Source: a virus (Duplodnaviria > Heunggongvirae > Uroviricota > Caudoviricetes). Taken from it: a DNA stretch of 64,000 nucleotides. Position 1 is the first letter of the stretch; every line of letters starts with the position of its first letter. Shown one piece after another: positions 47,988 to 64,000 of this stretch. The stretch is from the IMG/VR virus record IMGVR_UViG_2609459792_000007; one strand, given 5' to 3'. The position numbers and the translations under genes were made by a program. The notes under the pieces are model-generated. The model was not told the origin of the DNA. It saw only the letters and a program-made list of their open reading frames with translations, and ran no database searches.

Positions 47988-48728
47988 ATGAGCCAAATCT
48001 TTTTCGATACCATCGACAACGACCAGTACGACTTCATGACAGAGTGGAATACCGCTGTTATGGACAAGTGGGTCGCTGAAAACATTGGTTTGTCGCGCTG
48101 TAAAGACGAGGCTGAACTCTTCGAGACGAAGTGGTTTGATTACCGCGACATGCATCCTCTCATGGCCACCTGTCTTTTTACGGAGGCATACAAACGTCAG
48201 TACTCAAATATCATGCTGACGCACGGTCGCGAACACTTTGAAACAGCTCCGTTCACCACCGGGTTAAAACGCCTGCCTTATCAGGAGTTGTCGACTGCCA
48301 ATAAAACGTCGCTATGGAAAGCACGCCAGTTTGCGGATCGCTATTGCTGCTCATACGACTATTTTATCTCCACCGTTCTTTCCGCAGCTGCACGACGGCT
48401 GTGGGACAAGCTGCCGCGCCCACAGCATTTATGGCAGCCAGAGCTGGTTGAGATATTCGAAGAGAAATTAGCCAGACGCGCAACAACCCGTCTGGATGAC
48501 TCTCTGGTTAGTTTTAAGCATATGGGAGACATGCAGTTCAACCCGATTCAGGAAAGCTATTTTGAGTGGATTCTGGAGCGTTTACGCGCCATCCCCCGCA
48601 GCAAGCGCATACGCGCAATTTTCTCCGCTATCTGGCTAATGGAAATCGTTCCAGAGCGCCTTATTTCCGCCCACTTTCCAGAAGAACTGGAAGAAGCACG
48701 GCGGTTTATTGATCCCCTATCTAATTAA
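47988..48728 (+). CDS. hypothetical protein upstream of replicative helicase
   Basis: ATG 47988 with RBS aggtgag; position suggests a replication accessory role. Confidence 0.55.
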   Translation: MSQIFFDTIDNDQYDFMTEWNTAVMDKWVAENIGLSRCKDEAELFETKWFDYRDMHPLMATCLFTEAYKRQYSNIMLTHGREHFETAPFTTGLKRLPYQELSTANKTSLWKARQFADRYCCSYDYFISTVLSAAARRLWDKLPRPQHLWQPELVEIFEEKLARRATTRLDDSLVSFKHMGDMQFNPIQESYFEWILERLRAIPRSKRIRAIFSAIWLMEIVPERLISAHFPEELEEARRFIDPLSN

Positions 48729-48737
48729 CTAATACTA

Positions 48738-48753
48738 GAAAACAATTTGTTTA
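48738..48753. promoter_or_regulatory. family A operator GAAAACAATTTGTTTA upstream of helicase gene
   Basis: Dyad followed by RBS aaaggaaag. Confidence 0.55.
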
Positions 48754-48771
48754 AAAAACAAAGGAAAGCAC

Positions 48772-50112
48772 ATGACCGAACTTTGCCATACAGGACGCGG
48801 GCTGTCCGAAGAGTTTGATGAAGATTTCCAGAACAGACTGACGGCATATTTTTGTCGTGATCACGAGTTTCTTACTCGTGCGGGAGATCTGGTTGTGCCT
48901 AGCCAATTTGCCAATGCGGCCAATGCCATATTGGTTAATATGGTTTCGGGCTATTACCGTATGTACAAGAGCGCGCCCTCTTCATCTGCAATTCTGGATA
49001 TGCTTAAGCGTGCGAAACGCGATAAGACTATCCGTGAGGAACTATTCGCCGATGTTGTTGCTGCGTTTAAGCGCATCCTTGCAGAAAAATTGTCCGATAC
49101 CTCGTACATGGTTGACCAGGTATCAACCTTCGCAAAAAGCGTAGCGTTTGATGATGCTCTGATTAAGGCTGCTGAACTGAAAGAGAAAGGCGACTTTCAG
49201 GGGGCGATGGCAATCATGGCCAAGGTTCAGCAGATTGGATCGAACGAAGCGACCGGAATCTATGACTACTACACCTCCGCAAGTGAGCGATTGAAAGCGC
49301 GTGAATATGAGGCTTCAGAGGAGTATGTGCCAAACAGCATTACAACTGGACTCCCTCTGCTCGATAGGTTGCTGTACCAAAAAGGCTGGGCGAAGCGTGA
49401 AATGGTGCTCTTCATGGGGTTCGCTAAATCCGGTAAATCGACCGCAATGGGTGAGTTTTCCATAAACGCAACGCTTGCTGGCTACAATGTTCTGTATCTC
49501 TCGCTGGAGGTTCACACCAACATTTTGTCCGACCGTTTTGATGCAAGATTGTCGGAGACGGAAATGTCCAAGTTGGTGGAACGGCGCGATGAAGTTCATC
49601 GTAAGTTGGCAGAGTTGGGAGCCTCTAAGGGGATTGGTAGTTTGTGGGTTGTTGAGCGTCCGTCAGGAAGTATGTCACCGGCAGATCTGGACCGTATGCT
49701 TAACAGCATGAAAGCCAACGGCATGGTGCCTGACATGGTTGTTGTCGACTACGCAGATTTGATGCGTGCCAGTTATGACCTTCGTGATGATCGCGCCAAC
49801 ATTCGTAGTATCTACACCGATTTACGTGCTCTTTATGACAAGCATAACGTTGCTGGTATCACGGCGTCGCAAACAAACCGTGAAGGTGGCGCGTCAGAAG
49901 TTGCCACAATGATGCACGCTGCCGACAACATCGAAAAAGTACGTATTGCTGACCTGGTAATAACGATCAACAAAACCGAAGAAGAAGAAGCGAAAGGAGA
50001 GGCTCGTCTCTACTTTGCTGGTTCGCGTAACCAGCAGGGAGGGATCAGCATTCGCGTTAAACAAAACCTCGAACAAATGCGCTTCATTGAGCGGATCTTA
50101 GACGTTACCTAA
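48772..50112 (+). CDS. DnaB-family replicative helicase
   Basis: RecA-like C-terminal domain with Walker A GFAKSGKST and Walker B VVVDYADLM. Confidence 0.75.
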   Translation: MTELCHTGRGLSEEFDEDFQNRLTAYFCRDHEFLTRAGDLVVPSQFANAANAILVNMVSGYYRMYKSAPSSSAILDMLKRAKRDKTIREELFADVVAAFKRILAEKLSDTSYMVDQVSTFAKSVAFDDALIKAAELKEKGDFQGAMAIMAKVQQIGSNEATGIYDYYTSASERLKAREYEASEEYVPNSITTGLPLLDRLLYQKGWAKREMVLFMGFAKSGKSTAMGEFSINATLAGYNVLYLSLEVHTNILSDRFDARLSETEMSKLVERRDEVHRKLAELGASKGIGSLWVVERPSGSMSPADLDRMLNSMKANGMVPDMVVVDYADLMRASYDLRDDRANIRSIYTDLRALYDKHNVAGITASQTNREGGASEVATMMHAADNIEKVRIADLVITINKTEEEEAKGEARLYFAGSRNQQGGISIRVKQNLEQMRFIERILDVT

Positions 50113-50121
50113 AAAATAAGC

Positions 50122-51375
50122 GTGGAGAACACCTCCACGCTTGATTCATTGGTGAAACAACTTTTCTTTTGCCAAACCACAAAAGAAAAACACATGAGCC
50201 TTTATGTTATATCAACATTTAGGTTGGTCACAATATTGCCTGTTAAAAGTGGAATTATCGTGAGCGAGCTGAAAGAGCTAATTACCGAATTAGATTTTGA
50301 ACAATGGTTGGACACTGAAGGTATCGTTTATCGACGTGGAGGCGTGAGTGCTCGCGGTCGTGAAGTGAATATCAAGGAGTGTCCGGTATGCGGCAGCTCC
50401 AACTGGAAGGTATATTTCAATCTGACCAGTGGCGTCGGCAAATGCTTTGCTGGTGATCATCCCGAAGAGATTCAGTTCAATAAGCTGGTCTTCCTCAAGC
50501 ACTACAGCGGTAAATCACGACGACAGTTCGAGGAATATGTGCAGAACGCTCTTCTTTCCCAGGGGTGGGCACCAAAGAAAGAAGAGCTAGTGCTTGCAAG
50601 CACAGTCGAGTTAGAGGGGCCAGTTGCACTCCCTCGTCATTACGAGCTTCCTATAGATGGCCGTCTTCCAGACTATCTGGTTGAACGAAACATATCACCT
50701 GAAATGGCAAAGTATTTTGACCTACGATACTGCGTCGAAGGCAAGCACGCTTATGTAGATCCGTATACAGATCAGGTAAAAGGGCAGATATTCGATATGC
50801 GAGTACTGATACCGGTTTACGATCTGGATGGGGTAATGAAGACATTTCAGGGACGAGACATTACCGGTACAGCAGAACGCCGCTACCTCTTTCCTATGCA
50901 GCTTCCAGCTTCAGGTAAATTTCTCTACAACGGCCATAATGCAGTCGGCAAACAGACTGTAGTTGTCTGTGAGGGTGCGTTCGATGTTATGGGGGTCAAA
51001 CGAGCTATTTTCGACGAAGAAACATTACGTGATTACGTGGAGCCAATAGGAACGTTCGGGATGCATCTATCTGGTAACACCACTCAGGATGCAGAAGATC
51101 AGTTAGGCGCGTTCCTGACGCTCAAGGCGCGTGGGTTACGTAATGTGATCATGATGTGGGATAGTGAAAAGCAAGCTATACGCAACACTATGGCCGCAGC
51201 CAGGCGACTGACCAGTATCGGTCTTAATGTCAAAGTTGCGTGTTTGGGTGAGGAAGGACTCGACCCGGGCGGTGCAACGCCAGAACAAATTATCAAAGCC
51301 TATTATCGGGCAAAACCGTATACCAAACAGTTGGAGTTGCAAAGCAAGGTTTTGGGCATTAAGGCGCTATCGTAA
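50122..51375 (+). CDS. DNA primase (zinc-binding plus TOPRIM)
   Basis: CPVCGSS...KCF zinc-ribbon-like segment and TOPRIM-like VVVCEGAFD; start codon uncertain. Confidence 0.7.
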   Translation: MENTSTLDSLVKQLFFCQTTKEKHMSLYVISTFRLVTILPVKSGIIVSELKELITELDFEQWLDTEGIVYRRGGVSARGREVNIKECPVCGSSNWKVYFNLTSGVGKCFAGDHPEEIQFNKLVFLKHYSGKSRRQFEEYVQNALLSQGWAPKKEELVLASTVELEGPVALPRHYELPIDGRLPDYLVERNISPEMAKYFDLRYCVEGKHAYVDPYTDQVKGQIFDMRVLIPVYDLDGVMKTFQGRDITGTAERRYLFPMQLPASGKFLYNGHNAVGKQTVVVCEGAFDVMGVKRAIFDEETLRDYVEPIGTFGMHLSGNTTQDAEDQLGAFLTLKARGLRNVIMMWDSEKQAIRNTMAAARRLTSIGLNVKVACLGEEGLDPGGATPEQIIKAYYRAKPYTKQLELQSKVLGIKALS

Positions 51376-51386
51376 CAAGTGCCGCT

Positions 51387-51410
51387 AAAATAAGTAGATG
51401 ATTACTTATC
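51387..51410. promoter_or_regulatory. family B motif, reverse orientation
   Basis: aataagtagatgattacttatc. Confidence 0.45.
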
Positions 51411-51450
51411 TTTCTGTAAGAATACTTTCATCTGTTAGCTAGGAGTTGGT

Positions 51451-52233
51451 ATGAAAGACGAAATTCACAAATTAGCCTGCGACATCATTGATAAAACTGG
51501 TTTAGAAATCAGCGAGAGCAATCGACTAGACATCATTGAAAAAGCGGTAAAAACAGCAATGGATCATATCGCCACTCGTTTGGTTGAGATCCCGCTACCA
51601 GGGCTACCTTATCTGAAAGTTGAGTTACACGTATGGGGTGAACCTTCTTGTGCACGGCGTTCTGCATTAGTTGTTTTTATTAGCAAAGAAAACCCGCTCA
51701 GTCTTAAAGTGCAGGTTGGTGCATGGATGGATGGCAAAGTGATCTACACAAATACCGTTTTTTGTGCGCCAAACGACAGTATTATTGAAGAGGCTATTCA
51801 GGAATCACTTCTAACTATGCATAGCTTAGTTTTGCTGGAAGACAAGCAAAACTACGAAGAGTACTTACGGTCGATAAAAGGTGAGAGAACATTGTCACTT
51901 AGAGCCGATTTCGTTACCCCGACAAACCTGTTGGAAGTCTTGCTTAATAAAGGGGCTAATGATGCCGTAAATGTAATCAGAGAGAGTGAGTATGCGTCTC
52001 TTTGCGACATGTGCAAAAGCCAGTTGGATCTGGTGCATATCGTTATTGATGCTGGGAAGGCATGTGATGGCGTAATGGCGGAATTTGCTGGGAAGATGGT
52101 CAGGATTGCTAACGAATTACCGATGATAGAGCAAGAGGCTAAATCATACGCCACCAATCATGTCACAGAGCTTCTTGTCCCCTATCGCTTAGAAAGCAAT
52201 CAGCGCAAGATGATTAGCTGGGGAAGTTGGTAA
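51451..52233 (+). CDS. hypothetical protein (260 aa)
   Basis: ORF with RBS aggag. Confidence 0.55.
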   Translation: MKDEIHKLACDIIDKTGLEISESNRLDIIEKAVKTAMDHIATRLVEIPLPGLPYLKVELHVWGEPSCARRSALVVFISKENPLSLKVQVGAWMDGKVIYTNTVFCAPNDSIIEEAIQESLLTMHSLVLLEDKQNYEEYLRSIKGERTLSLRADFVTPTNLLEVLLNKGANDAVNVIRESEYASLCDMCKSQLDLVHIVIDAGKACDGVMAEFAGKMVRIANELPMIEQEAKSYATNHVTELLVPYRLESNQRKMISWGSW

Positions 52234-52265
52234 TCTCTCCGCGCGTCGTTTTTTTACGCAAACAA

Positions 52266-52285
52266 TGATAGGTAAGTACAAGATT
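52266..52285. promoter_or_regulatory. family B motif GATAGGTAAGTAC
   Basis: Ends about 12 nt before the ATG of the 52290 gene. Confidence 0.45.
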
Positions 52286-52289
52286 ATTT

Positions 52290-52772
52290 ATGGCGATAGT
52301 TGTGAAAGCTGATTTGTCAAAAATCCCCTCTATTTCAGGAAATAATGGTTATTCACTTCGTTGTGAGGAAGTAAAGATAAACGGTGAGTCGGCATATTGC
52401 AGTTACTCCGTTTGCCAGCACACCATTCTTGCCTTCAAAGAAAACCGTCTTCCTCGAACTTCTTTCCAGTCGTGCGCAACCGCTATTAAAGCAGGCAAAT
52501 GCAAGGCGTTAAAAATGATGGTTGAAGAGATTCGTAAAGGAGAATCTCTGTATTTCGAAGATATGACCGCACTCATTAAGGAGGTTGAAGAACGGAATAA
52601 ACAAGCCAGAACTATAAAACGAAAACGTGACAGTGTAACGATTAATAGCATGGTTAAGAAGAGCGCCACATCACAAACAGCGATCACTGACGTGTATGCG
52701 GCGTTGCTTGAAGAAACAACAAAAGAAACACATGAGCAAATCGATCAACATATGGAGGCAAAACAACAATGA
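52290..52772 (+). CDS. hypothetical cysteine-containing protein
   Basis: ORF between primase and ligase genes. Confidence 0.5.
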   Translation: MAIVVKADLSKIPSISGNNGYSLRCEEVKINGESAYCSYSVCQHTILAFKENRLPRTSFQSCATAIKAGKCKALKMMVEEIRKGESLYFEDMTALIKEVEERNKQARTIKRKRDSVTINSMVKKSATSQTAITDVYAALLEETTKETHEQIDQHMEAKQQ

Positions 52773-54091
52773 AAAAGTTGATCGCACTTAAGCATAAGCT
52801 GGACGAAATGAAAGCTATGGGAACCAATGCAAAAAAAGAGGCATTGGCCAACATGGATGACTTTGAACAAAGCATGGTTTCATTGATGCTCAACCCTTTC
52901 ATCCGTTTTGGGGTAAAGAAATACAAAGTGGCAGAGCCGCTTAGTGAGTCCGTCCCAAGTGACGAAAAAGCCATTGATGTACTGAATAAGCTGGCCTCTC
53001 GCGAGCTGACGGGGAACGCAGCAATAGTTGCTGTTGAGTCTATCGTAGCGTCAATGTGCGCCGATGGGCAGGACGTGTTCCGTCGTTTCCTCTTAAAAGA
53101 CCCGAAAGCAGGTGTTGGGATTAGCCTATGCAACAAGGTTTTTGAGAATCCCATTCCGAAATTCGAGGTGCAGCTGGCGTCACCGTATAAAGAAAAAGGC
53201 GACAAATACCCCTTCAAGCCAAATCCTAAAGCAAAATGGCCGATGATTGGCAGTCTTAAGCTCGATGGTTTGCGAGTAATTTGCGAGGTTATTGTTGACG
53301 AGGAAGAGGTTAACTTCCTTTCTCGTACTGGTAATCCAATCACGTCTCTCGATCACCTAAAGCCAGCAATGCTCGAATTAGGCAAACTTTCAGGCCACAA
53401 ACACATCTTCTTCGATGGTGAAGGAACAGCCGGTTCATTTAACCAGTCCGTATCTGCATTGCGCAAAAAGAACGTGCAGGCAATTGGCGCTATTTATCAT
53501 GTTTTCGACTTCTTCCTACCGGAATGGCGGGCACAGGCTAAATCCAAAGAGTATGCAAAGACAGGTATGAAGCTGAAAGAGCGCCTGGCTATGCTGGTGG
53601 CGTTGTTCAAAAACGATCGCAGTGAAGGCTACGGACAAGACATTCACCTGCATCCGTTCTATATCATCCATAGCCACGAAGATTTCATCGAACGCTTTAT
53701 GAAACGCCTGGACGATAACGAAGAAGGGGAGATGGGCAAAGATCCGAACTCTGTTTACGAGTTTAAACGTACCCGCAGCTGGTGGAAGTTAAAAGACGAA
53801 GATTCAGAAGATGGTGAAATTATCGACTTTGAGCCGGGCGACCCGGACTCTGGTTTTGCCAACACACTTGGAAAAATTGTTATTCGTCTTGAAAACGGCG
53901 TCATCGTTCGTGCGAGCGGCATTAAGCATAAATATCTGGACGAGATCTGGAACAACAAAGAGAAGTACCGTGGTCGTATTGTTGAGGTTCATTGTCACGA
54001 GAAAACGCCGGATGGCAGCTTACGCCACCCACGACTGAAATGGCCGCGTTGCTTACGCGATACAGAAGATCGAATCGGAGATAAAGAATGA
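52769..54091 (+). CDS. ATP-dependent DNA ligase
   Basis: Adenylation motif KLDGLR (SLKLDGLRVICEV) and downstream nucleotidyltransferase-like motifs. Confidence 0.8.
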   Translation: MKKLIALKHKLDEMKAMGTNAKKEALANMDDFEQSMVSLMLNPFIRFGVKKYKVAEPLSESVPSDEKAIDVLNKLASRELTGNAAIVAVESIVASMCADGQDVFRRFLLKDPKAGVGISLCNKVFENPIPKFEVQLASPYKEKGDKYPFKPNPKAKWPMIGSLKLDGLRVICEVIVDEEEVNFLSRTGNPITSLDHLKPAMLELGKLSGHKHIFFDGEGTAGSFNQSVSALRKKNVQAIGAIYHVFDFFLPEWRAQAKSKEYAKTGMKLKERLAMLVALFKNDRSEGYGQDIHLHPFYIIHSHEDFIERFMKRLDDNEEGEMGKDPNSVYEFKRTRSWWKLKDEDSEDGEIIDFEPGDPDSGFANTLGKIVIRLENGVIVRASGIKHKYLDEIWNNKEKYRGRIVEVHCHEKTPDGSLRHPRLKWPRCLRDTEDRIGDKE

Positions 54092-54267
54092 TGCTCGGCT
54101 GGATGATTGCATTTTTAGCGGTTGGTTTTTTAATCGGTATTGTGGTGATGTCCAGTTGCATCAATGACTACATTAAAAGCGGTGTTATAGAACGACGCGG
54201 TCGTATTTATCGCATTGTAGAAATAACCCACACAGTGAAGGAGATTAAGGATGATCGTATTAAGTAA
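54088..54267 (+). CDS. small membrane protein (59 aa), not in ORF track
   Basis: ATGA overlap with ligase stop; N-terminal TM helix; C-terminal RIYRIVEIT resembles the ORF at 54463. Confidence 0.35.
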   Translation: MMLGWMIAFLAVGFLIGIVVMSSCINDYIKSGVIERRGRIYRIVEITHTVKEIKDDRIK

Positions 54268-54466
54268 GCGGGAGAAGGAAACGCTTCATGAAATCAGTAA
54301 GTGGCCGGAGTTCCCTGAGTACTGGAAGCCTAAAACGCGGGCTAAGTTAGAGCGGTTAGGGTTGGTTGCAAACGTTTCTGAAACGTGGTGTTCGGCCAAC
54401 TACCAGTTAACTGATAAAGGGAAAGTATTGCTACAGCAATTAGTAGAATCAGGAGCGTTAAAATGA
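54251..54466 (+). CDS. hypothetical protein (71 aa)
   Basis: ORF with RBS gaaggag. Confidence 0.45.
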   Translation: MIVLSKREKETLHEISKWPEFPEYWKPKTRAKLERLGLVANVSETWCSANYQLTDKGKVLLQQLVESGALK

Positions 54467-54615
54467 TTCCATACATCTCATTAGCTTTTATGGGTGGCTT
54501 CCTTATTGGCTTCGGCATCTGTCGTGATTTAATTAAGCAGGAACTTAAAACCAAAACACTGTGCATCGGAAAGCGTGTGTATCGGGTAGTTCATGAAACA
54601 AAGGTTAGAAAATGA
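54463..54615 (+). CDS. small membrane protein (50 aa), paralogue-like, not in ORF track
   Basis: RBS aggagcg; starts with the ATGATTCCATACATC word; TM helix then RVYRVVHET. Confidence 0.35.
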   Translation: MIPYISLAFMGGFLIGFGICRDLIKQELKTKTLCIGKRVYRVVHETKVRK

Positions 54616-54902
54616 GCAATTTAACTTCTTGGGACTGGTGGTTGGTCACCTATTTCTTAGCGGCTGGAGTAGCATTCGCCTTTTACGTAGGTCAGTTAGT
54701 CGTAAAACTGTTGCTGATTAAATTTGCTAGTCATAAACGTATCGATGATGGTCTGTGGCGTCTTGGCACCTTGGTGGAAACTCGCTACGGGCAACTTAAG
54801 GAGAACGAAACCATTACTATCCAAGCGAAACGATTCACTGCCACCATCACAAGAACACCTAGTCGTAGAGTGGCCTTGATCAAAAAAGTCACAACCGAAT
54901 AA
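54612..54902 (+). CDS. membrane protein (96 aa)
   Basis: N-terminal TM helix WWLVTYFLAAGVAFAFYV. Confidence 0.45.
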   Translation: MSNLTSWDWWLVTYFLAAGVAFAFYVGQLVVKLLLIKFASHKRIDDGLWRLGTLVETRYGQLKENETITIQAKRFTATITRTPSRRVALIKKVTTE

Positions 54903-54910
54903 AAATACAA

Positions 54911-54933
54911 TGATAAGTATTTACTTACTTATC
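54911..54933. promoter_or_regulatory. family B motif GATAAGTA-N7-ACTTATC
   Basis: Inverted GATAAGT arms at the start of the structured region before the tRNAs. Confidence 0.45.
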
Positions 54934-55681
54934 TTATATGTATAAGATGACTTTGTTTTCGTTGAGACGCGACTGTTTGAACTTAAATACAAGTGCAAAC
55001 GAAGAAGTCTATCTGGCAGTAGCCTAATAAGCCAAACACCAGCGAGGTCAGTTTCCAGCCTCGTTACCGAAATGGGACACACTGAGCGAGTGTGATTGCA
55101 GAACGCAGGAGGGAACATTCATGTTCCCTCCGATGAAGTAACAGAATGGGCGGTTGGTATATTTTCAACTCCATATGACTCCCGGATTCTTAGCCACTGA
55201 CCGCCCATTCTGTTACGTCATTTTGTTCAATTATGTCGTTTATACTGGGTTAAAAAGCGGCGACGTAGCCCGGCTGGTATGGTCAGCCAGCACACAACGT
55301 TGAGGCCATTACATTTTTATCAATTCTAAGGTTCTATTCACAGAGATACCGGCGAGCGTTGATATGTAACATGTTGGGCAAACATTCAATCGGAGTAGTG
55401 GCCTCAACGTTGTGAAAATAGGATAGTTGTGTAGGTTTAACCACTGTTGCCATTGGTACCTGTTTTCACAACAAATGATTCCATACATCACATTGTATAA
55501 ATTACAAAGTAGGTGCTGTCCTCAGAAACATCATCTACTTAAATAATTTGCCTTCTACTATTGAGCGAAGTCGAAAGCGTCTGGCACTAACGAAAAGTGC
55601 AAGTAGCGGTGCGTTTCCTGGCAGAAACTAACACCGCCGCGATTGGCACTGTTGAGTAATAAATACTGGCAGTGCTGAATT

Positions 55682-55756: not shown

Positions 55757-55761
55757 ATTTA

Positions 55762-55848: not shown

Positions 55849-55852
55849 AATT

Positions 55853-56423: not shown

Positions 56424-56460
56424 GAAAGAGTCAAGTCTACGAACTTTGTAGGGAGAAATA

Positions 56461-57053: not shown

Positions 57054-57131
57054 TTTTAACGGCTCACAGGAGCCGTTTTTATTACCACCAAACTCACTCC
57101 CATTTCCCTTAAAATTCAAAAAACAACGTCA

Positions 57132-57164
57132 AAATGATTCCATACCTACTATGTATGGAATCAT
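57132..57164. other. candidate site-specific recombination site: perfect 13-7-13 inverted repeat
   Basis: AATGATTCCATAC-ctactat-GTATGGAATCATT, 100 bp upstream of tyrosine recombinase gene. Confidence 0.55.
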
Positions 57165-57217
57165 TAGTGAAAATGAGTTACTTTTACTCTTGATCCTATA
57201 AGAATCTATGCCTAATA

Positions 57218-57237
57218 TACTGTTTACTTATACAGTG
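57218..57237. promoter_or_regulatory. LexA-box-like sequence upstream of recombinase gene
   Basis: TACTGT-ttacttat-ACAGTG fits CTGT-N8-ACAG; 27 bp upstream of ATG 57264. Confidence 0.45.
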
Positions 57238-57263
57238 AATCGGCGTAACTCGGTGATTGTCAT

Positions 57264-58367
57264 ATGAAAAATAGCTTTGACAGAGCACGCGCTGCGGAGA
57301 ACACCTCAAAAGAGGCGATTGAGTATCTCGAAAGAGCATCTCAAATGCAGGCCGTTATGATCTCGCAGGTTAGCATTGATATGAGATTCTCGGACGCATT
57401 CATGTTATTCACTCGCTTATCTCTGCTGATAACCAGACGTCGGCCAGAGATCGCTGTTCATTGTATTTTGATACATGTTTTGCCGCACATTGCCGATGTA
57501 AAAGTAAGTGACATTAATAGGTTCATGGTGAACCAGCTGGTCAACCCACTAATACTGGATGGCAAAATTGTTATGGGCCGCCGCGTTTTCTCTCTGATGA
57601 AACAGTTCCTTAGCTGGTGCGCCTTCCAGGGGATGATAGACGTGTCACCGTTAAACGATATGTCACTAAACAAAGTTGCCGGTGGCGCAAAGCCCACACC
57701 TCGCGAGCGGAAGCTGACCGACGCAGAGGTATGGGTGTTCTGGAATATATGGGACTACTTCAATGTGTGCGCTGGTACAAAATGGGCGGCCAGGCTGTGT
57801 CTTGTATCAGCAAGACGACCTGACGAAGTACTGCGGGCTAAAAAAAGTGAGTTCAATCTTAAGCGTGGGGTTTGGAATCAAGGCAAGAGAAACAAGTCAG
57901 CACGTGAGCATTCGCTGCCTTTAAGCACATTAATGCGCACATGCATTGAAGAGTTGTTCGAATACGGTAAAGACAGCCAGTGGCTCGTGCCTTCGAATAA
58001 AAAAATCGGGAAAGACCTTCCTATGTCTAAAGTGGCAATAGCCCAGGCATTACGTCGTATTCTGGAACGACCAGAACTGATGGAGCTTGAGCCATTTACA
58101 CCCCGAGATTTGCGCCGTACTGCGCGTAGTTACTTCCCAGCATTAGGCATAAGCCAGGAGGTATCACGCAAAATCATGAACCACAGTCTTGAGGGGATAG
58201 ATCGGGTCTACGACCGGCACGATTATATGGACGAGATGCGAGACGCCTTAGAAAGTTTCTCGACGTACATCGCATCAATCGTAGAGCAACCGGATTTAGA
58301 CGAAATTGACCACAAATTCAAGGGAGATCGTCTATCAACAGAGCTTATTCGTGTAAATTTTTCATAG
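57264..58367 (+). CDS. tyrosine recombinase / integrase family protein
   Basis: C-terminal catalytic-domain-like residues (ARRPDE, DLRRTARSY, MNHS, RVYDRHDY). Confidence 0.7.
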   Translation: MKNSFDRARAAENTSKEAIEYLERASQMQAVMISQVSIDMRFSDAFMLFTRLSLLITRRRPEIAVHCILIHVLPHIADVKVSDINRFMVNQLVNPLILDGKIVMGRRVFSLMKQFLSWCAFQGMIDVSPLNDMSLNKVAGGAKPTPRERKLTDAEVWVFWNIWDYFNVCAGTKWAARLCLVSARRPDEVLRAKKSEFNLKRGVWNQGKRNKSAREHSLPLSTLMRTCIEELFEYGKDSQWLVPSNKKIGKDLPMSKVAIAQALRRILERPELMELEPFTPRDLRRTARSYFPALGISQEVSRKIMNHSLEGIDRVYDRHDYMDEMRDALESFSTYIASIVEQPDLDEIDHKFKGDRLSTELIRVNFS

Positions 58368-58748
58368 AGACTTTATGGCCTCAACAACCTTTTGTGATGC
58401 GCCTTTCTCTTTACCGAATCGCTCGTTATACGCAGCAAGAACCTGTTTTTCGTCCTCGTTAAGAGGAGCGGTGCCTTCTTTGTATAAAAATGCTGCGAGT
58501 TCAGGTTGGCGTTCTTCCAGCACCATCATCATAAGACGACTTGGTTCAATACCCAGCGCCAGCGCCAGCGGACGAACCTTATCGATAGGCAAAGGAATTT
58601 TGCCACTTTTAATTAAAGAAAGGTTGTTGGCATTTTTATAACCAATAAGTCTGGCTATTTGGGCCTGACTCATAGGTGAGGATTCAATCAGCCCTGCGAT
58701 AAAAGCAGCATAGCGACTTTCTATAAATTCAATCTTGTTGTCAGACAT
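58362..58748 (-). CDS. XRE-family helix-turn-helix transcriptional regulator
   Basis: HTH-like segment SQAQIARLIGYKNANNLSLIKSGK in a 128-aa protein. Confidence 0.7.
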   Translation of the reverse strand: MSDNKIEFIESRYAAFIAGLIESSPMSQAQIARLIGYKNANNLSLIKSGKIPLPIDKVRPLALALGIEPSRLMMMVLEERQPELAAFLYKEGTAPLNEDEKQVLAAYNERFGKEKGASQKVVEAIKSL

Positions 58749-58786
58749 TGTTACAACCTTTGCGCGTTTAATTCTCTCTGGTAAGT

Positions 58787-58800
58787 GCTTACCGATATTA
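58787..58800. promoter_or_regulatory. palindrome GGTAAG-TG-CTTACC upstream of regulator gene
   Basis: Perfect dyad about 40 bp upstream of the regulator start; related to family B. Confidence 0.45.
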
Positions 58801-58999
58801 CATCAAAGGTTAGGGTTGTAAAGCTATTATCATTTTTTTCGGCAGGCACTTGTAAGACCGAGCAAAGGTCCATGCATGGAGAAAAACTAGCCCAAAATAG
58901 GTAAGAAAATTAACTTGCATCTGATATAGATGTATTCAGTATTGATACAAATTTTAGTAGTATTCCTTACCATAGTATAAGTTAGAATGGATTGATTGA

Positions 59000-59212
59000 A
59001 TGAAAACCACTATTTCCAGCCTAATCGCTCTTGAGATCGGACACGTACAGAAATTAGCTGATGAGTGTGTAGCTGACATCCTCACCGATCTACCGAATGA
59101 GCAGATTCAGGTTGGTGTGAATGACACAACTGGCTTTATATTCGAACTTAACAACAAACGCTTCACGCTTCTCAATACCGGCTCCGGGTCTTTAGCCGTC
59201 AGAATCTGTTAA
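59000..59212 (+). CDS. possible small protein (70 aa)
   Basis: ORF in AT-rich intergenic region; followed by hairpin ctgcgcgaa...ttcgcgcag. Confidence 0.3.
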   Translation: MKTTISSLIALEIGHVQKLADECVADILTDLPNEQIQVGVNDTTGFIFELNNKRFTLLNTGSGSLAVRIC

Positions 59213-59310
59213 CCCCTCTTCTCCCTGCGCGAATGGCTTAGTTCCCTGTTCGCGCAGTGCTACATTAAACACACTAGTAAATAATTTGTTTTCATAACAA
59301 AGGATTAGCC

Positions 59311-61419
59311 ATGTCTAAAAAACGTTCCATCAAAGAGGTTCAGGACTTCCGTGACAGTGTAAAACGAGTAGTCGCTCTCCTTTCAGGTAAAAACATCCCT
59401 GTTGCAGAACGAGGGGACGACGCTTATGTACGCTATAACGATGATGGAGAGCCAATTCTCGTAAACATCCCATCAATCCCGGATAACGCAACACCGGCAT
59501 TGATGAATGCTGTGCGCGGATTTCTCGATCATGAGGTTGCTCACATTTTGTTTACCGATATTCGTGTGTCCAACAAAATGAGAGAAAAAGGACGCGTTCC
59601 TTCCTGGTCGCTATGGAATGCCTTAGAAGACGTGTTCATCGAGCGAAAAATGGGTCAGGTCTTTAACGGAACAAGACGTAATCTGATGGCAACTCAGCGC
59701 CTTATAATCGAAAAAGTCTTTAAACCAAAGGCTTCAGAGGCTATTGCTTATTGTGGCAAAGATCAGCGCGCGCTTTTTCTAAACTTCTTTCTCTGTCCGG
59801 TTGTAAGAGCCTGGGATGGCCAAGCACCGTTCGTAGATTTCATGGATGAATATTGGCCTGTCATTGAGAAACCAATTTCATTATTAAAAGAACATGGTAT
59901 CGATGTGGCCGTGCGTAACATGTCTTGCACCGAGGATTGTGTAAAGGTGGCTGCGACCATAGCTAAGATCCTCAAAGACACTGAAAGTGAAAGCAAAGGT
60001 AAGGAGTCAGCTCCGGGAAAAACTTCCGATCCTTCAGACGCTGACCAGACGGATGCCTCTGGAGAAAACAATGAAGACAACGAAGATCATGAGACACCCT
60101 CATCGTTAGATAATCACAAATCTATTAAATCAGAGTCACATAGTAAGCACAAACATGATAATAACGACAGTGATGATTCAGATAATCCTGAATCATCAGA
60201 AACAATATTCGATGATACAGAAAATGATAAAGCGGTATCAGATTCTGATGCTTCTGATAACGCGGCGTCAGAATCATTAACCGCTGACCACGAAAAAAGA
60301 AAAACGACAGAAGACGGCTCTTCAGACATTCCAACTCCGTCAAAAATGAGTCTGGAAGAGGCTTTAGAGGAGTTGGATAGCATGGAAGATGAAGTCGGAG
60401 GCATGACAGAAGATGCGCTATCCGAAACGATTAAAAGCGAGTTAACAGAAAGCTCGAAAAGCGAATACAGGCCATACAATCGCTCATACGACTTCATCGG
60501 CTCGATTGATCAGGCAGAAGCCCATATCAAACGGCTTATTAAAACATTCTCCGATATTGATTTAGGTGGATATCCAATCAGCCGTTATCGCATCGTTCCT
60601 GAAGGCAACCAACTCTTCGACAAATATATTGAAAAGCACCTTTCGTCAGGTGTTTCGTCGACGCTGGCAAAAGACCTGGAACGTGCAATAGCAAGCAGAA
60701 ACAGAGTTCAGTTTATACCTGGCCAGCGTCGGGGGCGCATTCATGGTTCAAGTATCTACAGATTAACAATGAATGATGATCGCGTGTTTCGTAAAAAAGA
60801 AGAATCTAAAGCCGTTAACGCCTGTGTTCAACAAGTGATTGATTTATCGGGTTCAATGAGTGGCGAAACGATAAAACTAGCTCTTGCAAGTGCATATACC
60901 ATCGCCGATGCACTTGATCGAATAAATGTTCCCAACATTATCACCGGCTTCACTACATTTGGCAGTCATATGGCAGCAGGAGAACTTAAGGCTATCAAAT
61001 ATGAGTTCTCTCGCTTTGAATCTTTAATGCTACCTATCATCAAAAATTGGAATGAAAAAGCAAATTCTCGCGAAGTTCGCTCACGTATGGGGTGCGTAGG
61101 CTACACATTCCCACTTCTTAATAACGTGGATGGTGAAAGCATAGCCAGCCTTGCATCGTTATTTTCCGGTCGCTTGGAGGACAGGAAGATCATGCTTGTT
61201 CTGAGCGATGGCGCGCCGTGGGCTGTTGGGAGAGGTTTTGACGCCCATTTGCGTTCGGTTACGAAGCAAATTGAAACGCAGACTGACATTGATTTGATGG
61301 CAATTGGCATCATGACTGATGCACCGGAGAGATTTTACGCAAATCATGCCCTGGTAACTAGTGTTGATAGTCTTGGTTCATCTGTAGTTACTGAACTATC
61401 TCGTATCATTTTGAAGTAA
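59311..61419 (+). CDS. CobT-like von Willebrand factor A domain protein with acidic linker
   Basis: MIDAS-like motif VIDLSGSMSG; long D/E/S-rich low-complexity region. Confidence 0.65.
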   Translation: MSKKRSIKEVQDFRDSVKRVVALLSGKNIPVAERGDDAYVRYNDDGEPILVNIPSIPDNATPALMNAVRGFLDHEVAHILFTDIRVSNKMREKGRVPSWSLWNALEDVFIERKMGQVFNGTRRNLMATQRLIIEKVFKPKASEAIAYCGKDQRALFLNFFLCPVVRAWDGQAPFVDFMDEYWPVIEKPISLLKEHGIDVAVRNMSCTEDCVKVAATIAKILKDTESESKGKESAPGKTSDPSDADQTDASGENNEDNEDHETPSSLDNHKSIKSESHSKHKHDNNDSDDSDNPESSETIFDDTENDKAVSDSDASDNAASESLTADHEKRKTTEDGSSDIPTPSKMSLEEALEELDSMEDEVGGMTEDALSETIKSELTESSKSEYRPYNRSYDFIGSIDQAEAHIKRLIKTFSDIDLGGYPISRYRIVPEGNQLFDKYIEKHLSSGVSSTLAKDLERAIASRNRVQFIPGQRRGRIHGSSIYRLTMNDDRVFRKKEESKAVNACVQQVIDLSGSMSGETIKLALASAYTIADALDRINVPNIITGFTTFGSHMAAGELKAIKYEFSRFESLMLPIIKNWNEKANSREVRSRMGCVGYTFPLLNNVDGESIASLASLFSGRLEDRKIMLVLSDGAPWAVGRGFDAHLRSVTKQIETQTDIDLMAIGIMTDAPERFYANHALVTSVDSLGSSVVTELSRIILK

Positions 61420-61432
61420 TTAAAACAGCCTT

Positions 61433-61457
61433 AATGATAAGTAACTACTTACCATAG
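61433..61457. promoter_or_regulatory. family B motif GATAAGTAACTAC
   Basis: Between the CobT-like and CobS-like genes. Confidence 0.45.
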
Positions 61458-61514
61458 TTAATGGTATATTTATATAAGAACTTGAACGCTCATTAGAGAA
61501 CAAAGGAAAAGCGC

Positions 61515-62750
61515 ATGACTACTACTGCACTGCAAAATGATAAAAATCCTTCTGATTACCTTGTTTGCAAGTGGTGCGGCAAATCATTTCACTATTTTAA
61601 GTCCCATGTAGCCAATGGTAATTGCGAGGGCATTCCTGAGTCAGTAAAAGATGCCGATCCTGACACCGTACTGAAAATGTACACAACGCAGTTTCCAGAT
61701 GAACCAACGCTATCGAAAAAGGCACTTGATGCAATTCAAGCTAAACGTGCCGAGCAAAAAAGCGAAATGGCGAAATCTTCTGGCTTGACCAGTAGCCCAG
61801 GCTACACAGGCACAGTTGAGTACAAGACAGATCTGGTCGCAGCTCACGAACTGCTAAACGTAACGGTGGAAGAACTCGGAACAAAACGTGGGACGCCGCT
61901 CATGGTTAGCGTCAACGTCAATACGCCGTATCCAGAGTTCGTTCCAGAAGTGAAGAAGGGCTACGTATATGGCGACTTCGAACTTATCAAAGATATTTTC
62001 ATGATGCTTGAACTTGGCATACCTGGCTATTTGTGGGGTCATGCAGGAACAGGCAAATCGTCATTGCCTACACAGCTATGTGCTTTGCTCAATCGTCCGT
62101 TGATCCGTGCCCAACATACAGCATCAATGGAAGAGGCACATGTTACGGGGCAAATTCTGGCGCGTGATGGCTCTACGTATTTCGAGCCTGGCTTGCTTGC
62201 GCTCGCAATGAAGCATGGCTGGGTTTACCTCGCGGATGAATACGACTTTGCGTTTCCACAAATTCTTGGCGTGTATCAGCCAGTGCTGGAAGGTGAGGCG
62301 TTGGTCATCAAAGAGGCAACTCCAGAATGGCGTCGCATTACTCCGCATGAACGGTTTGCTTTCATTGGCACTGGCAACACAAACGGTTCTGGTGATGAAA
62401 CCGGCTTGTACCAGGGTACAAACATCCAGAACGCCGCGAACTTTTCACGTTTTGGCATCGTTTCGAATGTGAAATACATGAGCAAAGAGGCAGAGATCAA
62501 CATGTTGATAAATGCCGGTATCGTGGATGAATACGCAGAAAAGATGGTTAAGTTTGCCGGTATCGTTCGCGATGGATACGAAGAACACCTTATCAGTCAG
62601 CCAATTGGCCCTCGTGAACTTTTGTTGTCGGCCAAGATTGGAATGATGCGAGGCGACTTTGTGACAGGTATTGAGCGTTCTTTCATTAACAAACTCCCTT
62701 CAGCTTCTGCACAAGCGGCTCGTGAAGTTGTTCAAAAAATATTTGGTTAA
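61515..62750 (+). CDS. CobS/MoxR-like AAA+ ATPase
   Basis: Walker A GHAGTGKSS, Walker B VYLADEYD. Confidence 0.7.
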   Translation: MTTTALQNDKNPSDYLVCKWCGKSFHYFKSHVANGNCEGIPESVKDADPDTVLKMYTTQFPDEPTLSKKALDAIQAKRAEQKSEMAKSSGLTSSPGYTGTVEYKTDLVAAHELLNVTVEELGTKRGTPLMVSVNVNTPYPEFVPEVKKGYVYGDFELIKDIFMMLELGIPGYLWGHAGTGKSSLPTQLCALLNRPLIRAQHTASMEEAHVTGQILARDGSTYFEPGLLALAMKHGWVYLADEYDFAFPQILGVYQPVLEGEALVIKEATPEWRRITPHERFAFIGTGNTNGSGDETGLYQGTNIQNAANFSRFGIVSNVKYMSKEAEINMLINAGIVDEYAEKMVKFAGIVRDGYEEHLISQPIGPRELLLSAKIGMMRGDFVTGIERSFINKLPSASAQAAREVVQKIFG

Positions 62751-62929
62751 TCGTGCGTAAAGGATGTTTCGGCTCTCTTATCGCTGCTTCTGAAACTGGT
62801 AAGGCTTGTCTGGTGTGTCCAGACAAGCCCGATTGTCACCAATCAGCAAAAGAAGTTGCGATTTCGATGCATGGGAAGTTCGTAGGCTTCCCCAATGACA
62901 AAATCAAAAAACCAGAAAGGTAAAAACAC

Positions 62930-64000
62930 ATGAAGGCACTGATGGTTCGAACTGACTTCTCACTTGGGGAGTCGGCTCTAAAAGCAGAAAACGCGGTGAA
63001 GATTGCCAGAGAAGCTGGCTACACCGCTGTAATTTCAGCAGATAGCATGAATATTGCGAGCGTTATTCCACTACAACGTGCCGCTGGTGACGACATGGCG
63101 GTTATTTGTGGTGTGAAACTAAACATTGTTGATGATCCCACATACGAGCACCGGGCTAAACTTGCTAAAGAATCTATGAGATGTATGGAATCATTAGAGC
63201 GGGGACGTAACTACTCGTTTACCGCTCTAATTAAAAATGAGCAAGGATATCGCGACATCTGCGAACTAATGACGGCGGCCAACACACGAGAACAGTTCTA
63301 CTTTGTACCGCGTCTCTCGCTCGAACAGTTGGTTTCTACATATGCCAAAGGCAACATCATCCTGCTTACTTCCGACATCGGTAGCGTGTTCCAACGCAAC
63401 GATTTTGCAAAAATCATAAGCACACTGATTACAGCGGGTGGAAAAGACAACTTCTATAGTGTGGTTTATCCGCACCCTACCCCATTCTACGACCAGATTA
63501 ACGTCCGGGCGATGAAAGTCGCCAGCGCATTGAAAATAGAGCCAGTGGCGTTCTATCCCGCTTATTACGAATCGATCGACGATGCAGACATTAAAGACAT
63601 TGCGCACATGGTTACGAACAACATAAAAATCGACCAGCCGCATCGTCTGCGTATCCCCCACCAGCGAGATAACGCCGTCAATGGTCGCCGCCATCTCCTT
63701 GAGGCGCTTAAAGCCTTCTCCGTTCGCATGGATGTGCCGGTAACAGCTGCAATGGCCTCAACAACGCAGGACTCCATTATCGAAGCCTGTACATGGCGCT
63801 GGCATGAATTGCCACCAGCACTGCCCAAGATGGCAGACGACGAGCCTGCAACGCTGATGAAACTGGCTGTTGCAGGGCTGCGCAAACGTCTTACCACAAA
63901 AGAGTTTGGCTACACACCACCGGCTTCTGAGAACAGGGTTTATGTTGAGCGACTTAAGTACGAAATGGACACGCTTACTCGCCTGGGATTTTGTGGTTAC
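62930..64000 (+). CDS. DNA polymerase III alpha-like protein, N-terminal PHP region (3' end outside window)
   Basis: Open frame from ATG 62930 (RBS aaagg) to window end, absent from ORF track because it has no stop; layout resembles DnaE N-terminus. Confidence 0.6.
   Translation, partial: MKALMVRTDFSLGESALKAENAVKIAREAGYTAVISADSMNIASVIPLQRAAGDDMAVICGVKLNIVDDPTYEHRAKLAKESMRCMESLERGRNYSFTALIKNEQGYRDICELMTAANTREQFYFVPRLSLEQLVSTYAKGNIILLTSDIGSVFQRNDFAKIISTLITAGGKDNFYSVVYPHPTPFYDQINVRAMKVASALKIEPVAFYPAYYESIDDADIKDIAHMVTNNIKIDQPHRLRIPHQRDNAVNGRRHLLEALKAFSVRMDVPVTAAMASTTQDSIIEACTWRWHELPPALPKMADDEPATLMKLAVAGLRKRLTTKEFGYTPPASENRVYVERLKYEMDTLTRLGFCGY

Follow-up and report, generated by a model that had tools for sequence, protein, structure and literature searches.

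Assignment by sequence of a 64-kb viral contig to the SSU5-like phage-plasmids of Escherichia coli

Introduction

Phage P1 persists in lysogeny by means of an iteron/RepA plasmid replicon and partition, and its lytic mode of replication is separate. Its other features include a tyrosine recombinase, paired with a short palindromic site, and an operator motif that recurs at many places in the genome. Nearly all of its replication machinery comes from the host, P1 itself contributing only the Ban helicase and an SSB. In outline, SSU5-like elements work in the same way as P1, although the sequences are unrelated, but they bring a helicase, primase, polymerase, ligase and SSB of their own as well as nucleotide-synthesis genes.

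The SSU5_pHCM2 group belongs to the SSU5 supergroup of phage-plasmids (Pfeifer et al. 2021, PMC7969092). Cyrano, which is plasmid pLF82 of the AIEC strain LF82 (OV696614 / NC_011917), has been described as SSU5-like, yields virions and responds to ciprofloxacin with a 39-fold induction (PMC9928086). Known cargo of the family includes resistance genes and toxin-antitoxin systems (PMC9600943, PMC9928086). Among phages, replication self-sufficiency rises with genome size, and C-family polymerases are rare but present (PMC4889955). Keyword searches of the literature returned no explicit description of the SSU5/pHCM2 replisome. Here we analyse a viral contig of 64,000 nucleotides, the whole of which is called the window, with emphasis on the interval 47988–64000.

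Results

Identity of the window

Judged by its sequence, the whole 64-kb window is an SSU5-like siphovirus phage-plasmid of E. coli of the Cyrano/pLF82 type, because its replication region is 97–98% identical to Cyrano as well as to some 170 plasmids of E. coli, and SSU5 is 79% identical and syntenic. Cyrano matches the interval 47988–64000 at 97.6% nucleotide identity over 98% coverage, and SSU5 matches it at 79% identity over 60% coverage with the gene order kept. At least 80% of the interval is spanned at 95–99% identity by 169 PLSDB plasmids, nearly all of them non-mobilizable IncFIB. The matching E. coli plasmids, which agree at 99% with the remainder of the window too, measure 95–120 kb, the near-identical copies being circular and about 110 kb. 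From one end to the other, the window holds a MetRS remnant, small early genes, a UvsW-like helicase, the genes from terminase to tail fibres, the lysis genes, ParA and the replication block.

The SSU5-like family is found on plasmid records in about 4–5% of complete E. coli genomes. The replication operon occurs in 254 of 5426 such genomes, and 294 of its 297 places are on plasmids; the sole chromosomal record among the matches listed covers only 15% of the operon. For the windowed element itself, circularity, copy number and the repA region are extrapolated from the 97–98% identical relatives. The preliminary description had taken the replication machinery as the mark of an autonomous, episomal element, and the relatives agree with it in that they are circular plasmids of about 110 kb and Cyrano/pLF82 is episomal at 5.5 copies per chromosome (PMC9928086). 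The same description had contrasted the locus with integrated lambdoid prophages, a contrast that falls away: the element is an ordinary member of a phage-plasmid family rather than an unusual lambdoid. The flagged genes are real but ordinary because they are the replication machinery of a well-known type of plasmid-dwelling E. coli virus, and the large replication module is standard, already known equipment of the SSU5-like family. The main value of the analysis lies in the correct label of the contig as an SSU5-like phage-plasmid.

The replication block

The interval starts, at 47988, exactly on the start codon (ATG) of the gene that heads the replication operon. The genes of the interval are as follows.

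47988–48728, plus strand: 246-aa protein, first gene of the operon (PHROG 2500, a family without annotated role)
48772–50112, plus strand: DnaB-family (SF4) replicative helicase, T4 gp41-like (Pfam DnaB_C, 3.5e-13; PHROG 19, 2.6e-88)
50260–51375, plus strand: DnaG/TOPRIM-type primase (PHROG 47, 3.1e-63; TIGR01391, 1.7e-8)
51451–52233, plus strand: 260-aa hypothetical protein (PHROG 4248, a family without annotated role)
52290–52772, plus strand: 160-aa hypothetical protein (PHROG 5055, a family without annotated role)
52769–54091, plus strand: ATP-dependent DNA ligase (Pfam DNA_ligase_A_M, 1.1e-12; PHROG 114, 2.3e-125)
55682–56239, plus strand: tRNA cluster Asn(GTT), Tyr(GTA), Thr(TGT), Ser(TGA) (ARAGORN; three confirmed by Rfam)
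56461–57053, plus strand: Gp49-family protein and glutaredoxin (Pfam Phage_gp49_66, 3.4e-29; Glutaredoxin, 1.5e-10)
57264–58367, plus strand: tyrosine recombinase ("integrase"; Pfam Phage_integrase, 5.4e-10; PHROG 1, 6.8e-46)
58362–58748, minus strand: HTH regulator, putative lysogeny repressor (weak HTH_19 match; annotated as putative repressor in Cyrano)
59311–61419, plus strand: CobT-like VWA protein (Pfam CobT_C, 5.7e-83)
61515–62750, plus strand: CobS/MoxR-like AAA+ ATPase (Pfam AAA_5, 2.1e-15; PHROG 249, 2.2e-106)
62930–64000, plus strand: DnaE-type DNA polymerase III alpha, N-terminal 357 codons (PHP and start of palm), ending at the window edge

Profile matches and motifs confirm the helicase, ATP-dependent ligase and DnaE start that the preliminary description had reported, and they support the primase. 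Like other SF4 helicases, the helicase joins an N-terminal helical domain to a RecA-like C-terminal one, and its translation shows the motifs Walker A (GFAKSGKST) and Walker B (VVVDY). DnaB_C scores 50 bits (cut-off 27) and the PHROG 19 match spans residues 6–440, while the score below the NCBIfam equivalog cut-offs makes the protein a diverged phage-type member. The product of 50260–51375 is accepted as a primase on its sequence features, which include a zinc motif CxxC...CxxxxH (CPVC...C..GDH) and the TOPRIM "CEG"; its Pfam scores lie just under threshold (DNAG_N, 24.8 bits, cut-off 26; Toprim_2, 21.0 bits, cut-off 22.1) and its PDB matches are primases (5guj, 2e-5; 8dvf_H, 2e-3). The start at 50260 follows the annotation in relatives, and a GTG at 50122 gives an ORF longer by 46 codons. 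The ligase carries the adenylation motif KLDG together with FFDGE and WWKLK, scores 48.6 bits with DNA_ligase_A_M (cut-off 26.2) and matches the PDB ligases 6rau (3.7e-26, residues 28–427) and 6dt1 (1e-24).

The 246-aa protein has 39 homologues, every one on Enterobacterales contigs of about 100 kb, and is confined to SSU5-like elements. It is predicted to be all-helical (AF2 pLDDT 85.5), and a fold search of it gave no significant match. From its position, one might guess at a helicase loader or organiser. The 260-aa ORF has just 9 homologue clusters and a shallow alignment; its AF2 model is unusable (pLDDT 54, mostly helical), and a PDB search with the alignment profile came back empty. Searches of Pfam, NCBIfam and, with the single sequence, the PDB gave nothing for the 160-aa ORF.

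The DnaE frame is uninterrupted over its 357 codons up to base 64000, matches PHP (7e-14) and PRK05673 (5.8e-28, positions 9–341), and is identical to Cyrano DnaE at 354 of 356 residues. The domains after PHP are judged from the 98.5%-identical Cyrano gene, which identifies the polymerase as a C-family Pol III alpha (DNA_pol3_alpha, 1.3e-73; finger, 2.7e-46; HHH_6, 3.2e-16). A disruption of the frame downstream had been named as an outcome that would refute the preliminary description; in relatives the gene is intact at 1168 aa, and the Cyrano copy has PHP, palm, fingers and HHH. Homologues of DnaE at 60% identity or more occur on about 820 plasmids.

The gene order from parA to dnaE is identical in Cyrano. 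SSU5 shares the succession of ParA, a hypothetical protein, DnaB-like helicase, primase, hypothetical proteins, ligase, tRNA-Asn, CobT, CobS and DnaE, and the position of the CobT-like gene immediately upstream of dnaE is kept there too. SSU5 differs in having one extra minus-strand gene after the primase and in lacking the integrase/repressor block between tRNA and cobT. In a plasmid prophage, the tyrosine recombinase of this block is most likely a multimer resolvase. A Rfam scan of the window found tRNAs only.

Comparison with the T4 replisome

The closest solved relatives of the helicase (8dtp/8due, 3e-12) and of the primase place both with the 8dtp/8dvf series, which we take to be the T4 gp41–gp61 primosome, and the 6dt1 structure matched by the ligase is presumably T4 ligase. 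The window's relatives further resemble T4 in having a gp32-type SSB, UvsY, a UvsW-like helicase, Pnkp and FEN. Past the window end, their replication module continues with UvsY, the gp32-type SSB, FEN, RecA, an epsilon-like exonuclease, RNase H and nucleotide-synthesis enzymes. Unlike T4 with its B-family gp43, the SSU5-like element uses a C-family DnaE of bacterial type and encodes the epsilon-like exonuclease separately; it is also temperate and plasmid-borne.

The gp45 clamp and gp44/62 loader of T4 were not found in the SSU5-like element. No clamp or clamp loader is annotated in the full-length Cyrano and RefSeq sister plasmid or in about 22 kb of SSU5, and the replication-module ORFs gave no match to clamp or loader families in Pfam, PHROGs and NCBIfam, a search that very divergent clamps could escape. 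The 260-aa and 160-aa ORFs were considered as a hidden clamp or loader and rejected, the 260-aa model being not clamp-like (at low confidence) and the PDB searches empty. A self-sufficient T4-type replisome would have its own clamp and loader; since neither is encoded, the "near-complete" replisome of the preliminary description is overstated, and SSB, FEN and the epsilon-like exonuclease lie beyond the window. As none is encoded, the sliding clamp and clamp loader are most likely host proteins. Among the hypothetical ORFs there may be a divergent processivity factor of the phage. A simple regular-expression search of Cyrano DnaE gave no canonical clamp-binding motif Qxx[LM]xF, a result that speaks against use of the host beta clamp but is not decisive.

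Partition, RepA and lysogenic maintenance

The window has a partition pair, ParA and a co-directional partner.

45858–46526, plus strand: ParA-type partition ATPase, small, type Ib-like (PHROG 164, 4.2e-51; NF041546 ParA_partition, 1.9e-33)
46526–46885, plus strand: 119-aa ParA partner (PHROG 5111, a family without annotated role)

The partition genes claimed for the interval thus exist, but lie just outside it (45858–46885). The 119-aa partner, which had no match in Pfam or the PDB, is presumed from its position to be the centromere-binding protein; support was found neither for a RelE/ParE toxin, its label in Cyrano, nor for a known centromere-binding fold. In relatives, a RepA of the Rep_3 type (Rep3_N/Rep3_C, IncFIB) is encoded 13–15 kb past the window end, and in Cyrano repA is flanked on both sides by iterons CTCTCTAYAGTGGATA in about 17 copies. 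The window itself holds no repA and, by pattern search, one chance-level match to CTCTCTAYAGTGGATA. An iteron origin was defined as at least 3 regularly spaced direct repeats of about 17–22 bp beside an initiator gene, and no such arrangement is present in 47988–64000. A repeat search at several seeds and distances and TRF found no iteron-type direct-repeat family in 44000–64000, so that the iteron-like repeats reported earlier did not hold up.

Expression values for the lysogen come from RNA-seq of LF82 (S1 Table of PMC9928086; background 9.8). Among the maintenance and control genes, RepA reaches 133 (13.6-fold over background), ParA 50 (5-fold), the ParA partner 89 (9-fold) and the repressor 96 (10-fold), and the tyrosine recombinase stands at 5-fold. 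Primase (10.6), ligase (5.9), DnaE (10.1) and the epsilon-like exonuclease (10.7) lie at about background, whereas the helicase (21) is at about 2-fold, and therefore not strictly off, and its 260-aa neighbour CYRAN_34 is at about 4.5-fold. Since RepA and ParA are expressed in the lysogen and primase, ligase and DnaE stay near background, the likeliest use of the phage replisome is in lytic replication and not in plasmid maintenance.

It is improbable that the phage-encoded helicase, primase, ligase and DnaE replicate the plasmid in lysogeny and so give it true autonomy from the host replisome. Their conservation in essentially all family members, their place next to parA and the helicase and CYRAN_34 signals would suit such a role, but the background-level values of the remaining replisome genes beside the RepA signal argue against it, as does the classical Rep_3 initiator with iterons, of IncFIB type, in the family. 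It is established plasmid biology that Rep_3/iteron replicons recruit host DnaB, DnaG and Pol III. Judged by its relatives, the element is probably episomal as proposed, but its replication autonomy probably derives from the Rep_3-type RepA and iterons past the window end and not from the flagged genes.

The interval is very probably the early replication block of an SSU5-like phage-plasmid in which RepA and the iterons act in lysogeny and the phage replisome acts in the lytic phase, a division of labour that we infer. The block combines a primosome of T4 type (the DnaB-family helicase being gp41-like and the primase gp61/DnaG-like), an ATP-dependent ligase that is also T4-like and a C-family DnaE with the tRNA cluster, the tyrosine recombinase and HTH repressor, and the CobT/CobS-like pair. 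As a prophage, the element would be a low-copy circular plasmid replicated by Rep_3/IncFIB RepA on iterons outside the window, copied by the host replisome and segregated by ParA and its partner, with the phage replisome genes repressed. SOS-type induction would switch these genes on, and the genome would then be copied for packaging with a sliding clamp and loader taken from the host.

Integrity of the windowed copy

The windowed copy could instead be a defective, plasmid-only remnant whose replication genes are decaying cargo, which we regard as very improbable. Many members of phage-plasmid families are defective or hybrid (PMC12977533), and relative to Cyrano the window has gene replacements at 44366–45750 and 46884–47806. 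Three hypothetical ORFs (44075–45681) stand in place of the Cyrano KacT toxin-antitoxin pair, a GIY-YIG gene (46938–47705, minus strand) replaces CYRAN_30, and the window has an additional tRNA-Tyr and lacks the highly expressed CYRAN_43. These differences are confined to accessory cargo slots, however, and every replication ORF of the window has the full length seen in relatives, with its catalytic motifs intact. The siphovirus module is likewise intact: terminase, portal, major head, tape-measure (1530 aa), tail-fibre and endolysin genes give strong PHROG matches, and the lysis genes are intact.

An integrated lambdoid prophage with an acquired, unusually rich replication module can be dismissed in spite of the tyrosine integrase, the HTH repressor and the likeness to a lambda-type minor tail protein in the relatives' annotation, since lambda O/P-type replication genes are absent from the window, all 64 kb are colinear end to end with the ~110-kb plasmids, Cyrano and SSU5, just 3 of the operon's 297 places in complete E. 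coli genomes lie on chromosomes, and SSU5 has no integrase at all.

Palindromes and repeats

The following palindromic elements lie in or next to the replication block.

47815–47871, no strand: 57-bp palindrome, AT-rich but with outer arms rich in GC, upstream of the replication operon
48738–48752, no strand: one copy of the palindrome AAACAAnTTGTTT (13 bp), 20 nt ahead of the first codon of the helicase gene
57133–57165, no strand: perfect 13-7-13 inverted repeat AATGATTCCATAC-N7-GTATGGAATCATT, 100 bp ahead of the gene for the recombinase

The 57-bp palindrome has a second copy at 15013–15067, upstream of the terminase genes, and is predicted to form a 25-bp hairpin (z = -7.8); its position is kept in Cyrano and SSU5. 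The 13-bp palindrome matches 20 times in the window against 0.24 expected and is kept in SSU5, where both elements lie at the same positions. About 15 genes, parA and the helicase gene among them, have it between a putative promoter and the ribosome-binding site, and the layout of a -10-like hexamer, about 12 nt, the palindrome, a Shine–Dalgarno sequence and ATG recurs at parA, terS and several small genes. Conceivably, though we think it rather unlikely, an undescribed circuit acting through both palindromes, the 13-bp one as an operator, controls the replication and packaging/late operons and sets the switch from RepA to the phage replisome, with the 246-aa protein as a new loader or organiser. 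The shared palindromes, the start of lytic replication and the pairing of a C-family DnaE with T4-like accessories in the absence of an encoded clamp are questions for the whole family rather than for this window.

Repeats of 31 nt occur at 2239–2300 and 5847–5935, and neither these nor the 13-bp palindromes adjoin a rep gene. The 31-nt repeats were rejected as RepA iterons, being unlike those that flank repA and located away from repA in Cyrano. From its sequence, the 13-7-13 inverted repeat is a candidate recombination or operator site.

An SSU5-like phage-plasmid carrying its standard replication block

Nucleotide identity, colinearity with plasmids, the siphovirus module and synteny with Salmonella phage SSU5 place the window among the SSU5-like phage-plasmids, within the SSU5_pHCM2 group (Pfeifer et al. 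2021, PMC7969092). Across 98% of its length, the interval 47988–64000 shares 97.6% identity with Escherichia phage Cyrano, which is plasmid pLF82 of E. coli LF82 (OV696614 / NC_011917); two 'phage CMS-2020a' records reach 97–98%, and SSU5 reaches 79% across 60% of the interval. In PLSDB, 169 plasmids span at least 80% of the interval at 95–99% identity, nearly all of them from E. coli, 95–120 kb long and non-mobilizable; these plasmids also match the window's first 24 kb, at 99%. In a direct comparison, the window proved colinear, except for a few cargo swaps, with Cyrano and with a RefSeq relative, the one sister plasmid examined, which is typed IncFIB. The siphovirus module is complete (terminase, portal, major head, 1530-aa tape measure, tail fibre, endolysin), and the gene order is that of SSU5: ParA, an unknown gene, helicase, primase, unknowns, ligase, tRNA, CobT, CobS and DnaE. 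Identity and colinearity with SSU5-like phages and plasmids rule out an integrated lambdoid prophage. The replication genes of the interval are the standard, already known block of a common phage-plasmid family.

A tight series of open reading frames occupies the plus strand from 47988 to 64000. The helicase, primase, ligase and DnaE start named in the preliminary description are all found there by profile matches, motifs and an open frame; the partition genes it also placed in the interval exist as ParA and a 119-aa partner, but lie just upstream, at 45858–46885.

Replication and partition genes of the window
45858–46526, plus strand: ParA, directly upstream of the interval
46526–46885, plus strand: ParA partner, 119 aa, directly upstream of the interval
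48772–50112, plus strand: DnaB-family helicase (Pfam DnaB_C 3.5e-13, above cut-off; PHROG 19 at 2.6e-88)
50260–51375, plus strand: DnaG/TOPRIM primase, start as in relatives (PHROG 47 at 3.1e-63; TIGR01391 at 1.7e-8)
52769–54091, plus strand: ATP-dependent ligase (KLDG motif; Pfam 1.1e-12; PHROG 114 at 2.3e-125)
62930–64000, plus strand: start of DnaE-type Pol III alpha (ATG; frame open for 357 codons to the last window base)

Walker A (GFAKSGKST) and Walker B (VVVDY) motifs are visible in the helicase translation, as are a zinc motif and the TOPRIM glutamate in the primase, whose Pfam DNAG_N and Toprim_2 scores both fall slightly below their cut-offs and whose alternative GTG start at 50122 gives a longer frame. 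The DnaE fragment covers the PHP domain and runs into the palm, with two residue differences from Cyrano DnaE across the 356 complete N-terminal codons in the window. The first gene of the operon (47988–48728) encodes a 246-aa protein confined to SSU5-like elements of Enterobacterales; neither PDB nor BFVD yielded a significant structural match to its confident all-helical model (pLDDT 85.5), and a role as helicase loader is only a guess from gene position. Searches with the 260-aa and 160-aa operon genes gave no identification.

A hybrid replisome

For both helicase and primase, the closest solved structures belong to the 8dtp/8due/8dvf series, labelled 'DnaB-like replicative helicase' and 'DNA primase', which we take to be the T4 gp41–gp61 primosome, and the ligase matches include 6dt1, presumably T4 ligase. 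Relatives also carry a gp32-type SSB (Pfam gp32 1.7e-66), UvsY, a UvsW-like helicase, FEN, RNase H, Pnkp, an RNase_T-type epsilon-like exonuclease, RNR, ThyX and DHFR. Because a T4-like accessory set is combined with a bacterial C-family polymerase, the replisome is a hybrid, with T4-like proteins arranged around the polymerase. To describe this set as a near-complete replisome goes too far, given the lack of a sliding clamp and clamp loader: the annotations of Cyrano, of the sister plasmid and of the SSU5 stretch examined contain neither, and searches with the module ORFs detected neither. A simple pattern search likewise found no canonical Qxx[LM]xF beta-clamp-binding pentapeptide in Cyrano DnaE (758–4264 of L004, the sequence carrying the gene). 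Such a gene set in a ~108-kb phage fits the growth of replication self-sufficiency with phage genome size, and C-family polymerases are present but rare in phages (Kazlauskas et al. 2016, PMC4889955).

Episomal state and the plasmid replicon

An intact polymerase frame and an episomal form had both been set as tests of autonomy, and relatives of the window show both. Cyrano DnaE is full-length (1168 aa, with PHP, palm, finger and HhH domains), dnaE is intact in the sister plasmid, the frame in the window is open, and DnaE homologues of at least 60% identity occur on about 820 plasmids. Among 5426 complete E. coli genomes, 254 carry the replication operon (47988–54091), and 294 of its 297 places there are on plasmids; the sole chromosomal record among the 40 matches listed is a 15% fragment. 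Cyrano is present at 5.5 copies per chromosome in LF82 and produces siphovirus particles, and ciprofloxacin induces it 39-fold (PMC9928086). Inferring an autonomous, episomal element was right in substance, but the replication block is the standard one of a known family, and the plasmid replicon proper lies elsewhere. In some Enterobacter relatives, a NUMOD4/HNH homing-endonuclease insertion splits dnaE. An intein is suggested for the RecA gene of the family by its length of 2.3 kb and its annotation as LAGLIDADG-containing.

Both Cyrano and the sister plasmid have a RepA initiator of the Rep_3 type (Pfam Rep3_N, Rep3_C), and 17 iteron copies with the core CTCTCTAYAGTGGATA lie on both sides of repA. 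Since repA is 13–15 kb downstream of the dnaE start in both, past the window end, and the iteron core has one chance-level match in the window, the origin for plasmid autonomy lies outside both the interval and the window. Iteron-like repeats had been reported in the interval; repeat searches of 44000–64000 found nothing of the kind. A 31-nt direct repeat (core ACCNACCTSTTNNNNNCMGGCTA) occurs in 5–6 copies at 81–103, 2239–2300 and 5847–5935, as tandem pairs or triplets distant from any rep gene, and Cyrano has it too. These repeats bear no resemblance to RepA iterons and were rejected as such; they may be what was termed iteron-like.

Two proposed modes of replication

Normalised RNA-seq counts are available for the LF82 lysogen grown overnight in LB (S1 Table of PMC9928086), with a median Cyrano background of 9.8 and the authors' expressed-gene cut-off at 49. 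Counts for the replication block are 6.2 for the 246-aa first gene, 21 for helicase, 10.6 for primase, 5.9 for ligase, 7.8 for CobT, 6.7 for CobS, 10.1 for DnaE and 10.7 for the epsilon-like exonuclease; those for RepA, ParA and its partner are 133, 50 and 89, and the HTH repressor, integrase and LexA-like S24 protein reach 96, 50 and 148 (PMC9928086). The most likely reading is a division of labour between RepA with the host and the phage replisome. During lysogeny the plasmid would be kept by RepA and its iterons, ParA and the host replisome, with the phage-encoded replisome repressed; after induction, the latter would be used for lytic replication. The expression, copy number and inducibility data come from the 97.6%-identical relative Cyrano.

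Palindromes as candidate control elements

Two palindromes recur in the window.

Palindromic elements
47815–47871: 57-bp AT-rich palindrome CCTGCTTCTGTATATATAAATAATAAGTAACTTATTAAATATATACGGAAGCAGG with GC-rich outer arms, ahead of the helicase–primase–ligase operon
15013–15067: near-identical second copy, upstream of the terminase/structural operon
1243–6001, 8906, 15103–15144, 42095, 45808, 48738, 59279: sites of the 13-bp palindrome AAACAAnTTGTTT

Cyrano and SSU5 carry the 57-bp palindrome at the corresponding position, and it is predicted to fold into a long hairpin (z = -7.8). It looks like a shared operon-level element; possible functions are those of an operator, of a terminator/antiterminator hairpin or of something origin-like. 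The 13-bp palindrome, searched as GAAAACAAGTTGTTT, occurs 20 times in the window, where 0.24 occurrences would be expected. At the eight sites inspected, a -10-like hexamer is followed by ~12 nt, the palindrome, a Shine-Dalgarno sequence and ATG; the genes behind this layout are parA, the helicase, a gene at 15183 that lies just ahead of the large terminase gene, and a number of small genes. Three copies are kept in the SSU5 stretch examined. Scattered genome-wide like the P1 operator, the 13-bp palindrome looks like a candidate operator of a regulon or of the whole genome. No published description of either palindrome was found in the accessible literature.

Recombinase block, tRNAs and cargo

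The interval also holds four tRNA genes, a Gp49-family protein and a glutaredoxin. The tRNA region (55133–56319) is interleaved with hairpins of ~20-bp stems that share CACAxCGTTGAG arms (55293–55414, 55926–56012, 56242–56319), and a further hairpin lies at 55133–55221. tRNA-Tyr is absent from Cyrano; tRNA-Ser is called by ARAGORN and scores below the Rfam gathering score. A block absent from SSU5 combines an HTH repressor (58362–58748) with a tyrosine recombinase in divergent orientation; in a plasmid prophage, we infer, the recombinase would more likely resolve multimers than act as an integrase. At 100 bp upstream of its gene lies a perfect 13-7-13 inverted repeat (57133–57165). The 15-mer AATGATTCCATACAT occurs in four exact copies, plus a single-mismatch copy that is the left arm at 57133 (sites 54462, 55474, 57133–57165, and 63181 on the minus strand); two copies of this type make up the inverted repeat, two coincide with start codons of tiny ORFs opening MIPYI, and one, antisense within dnaE, is shared with the integrase-less SSU5.

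A CobT-like VWA protein and a CobS/MoxR-like AAA+ ATPase (59311–62750) directly precede dnaE, as in SSU5; the pair occurs here in a phage without a cobalamin pathway, and in the Cyrano lysogen it is silent, like the replisome genes (PMC9928086). Relative to Cyrano, the KacT toxin-antitoxin pair is replaced by three ORFs with no Pfam match (44075–45681), CYRAN_30 is replaced by a GIY-YIG (LEM-3-like) gene (46938–47705, minus strand), and the very highly expressed CYRAN_43 is missing from its expected place near 57026–57114.

In the left part of the window, ~820 nt at 1900–2720 are A+C-rich and G-poor (G 13%, the window minimum) with no convincing ORF, and are followed by a G-rich stretch of ~380 nt at 2780–3160; Rfam gave no match for 1900–3160. 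In this region Cyrano has the 'coiled-coil' CYRAN_102 annotated, and because it is transcribed at ~6x background in the lysogen (PMC9928086), this feature may represent a non-coding RNA. The region shortly before the terminase genes (10172–13824) encodes a UvsW-like DEAD-box helicase (minus strand), two ParB_N-domain proteins and an ABC-type ATPase, the last assigned by position against the sister-plasmid annotation. The ParB_N-domain proteins are silent in the Cyrano lysogen (PMC9928086) and are therefore probably not the partner of ParA.
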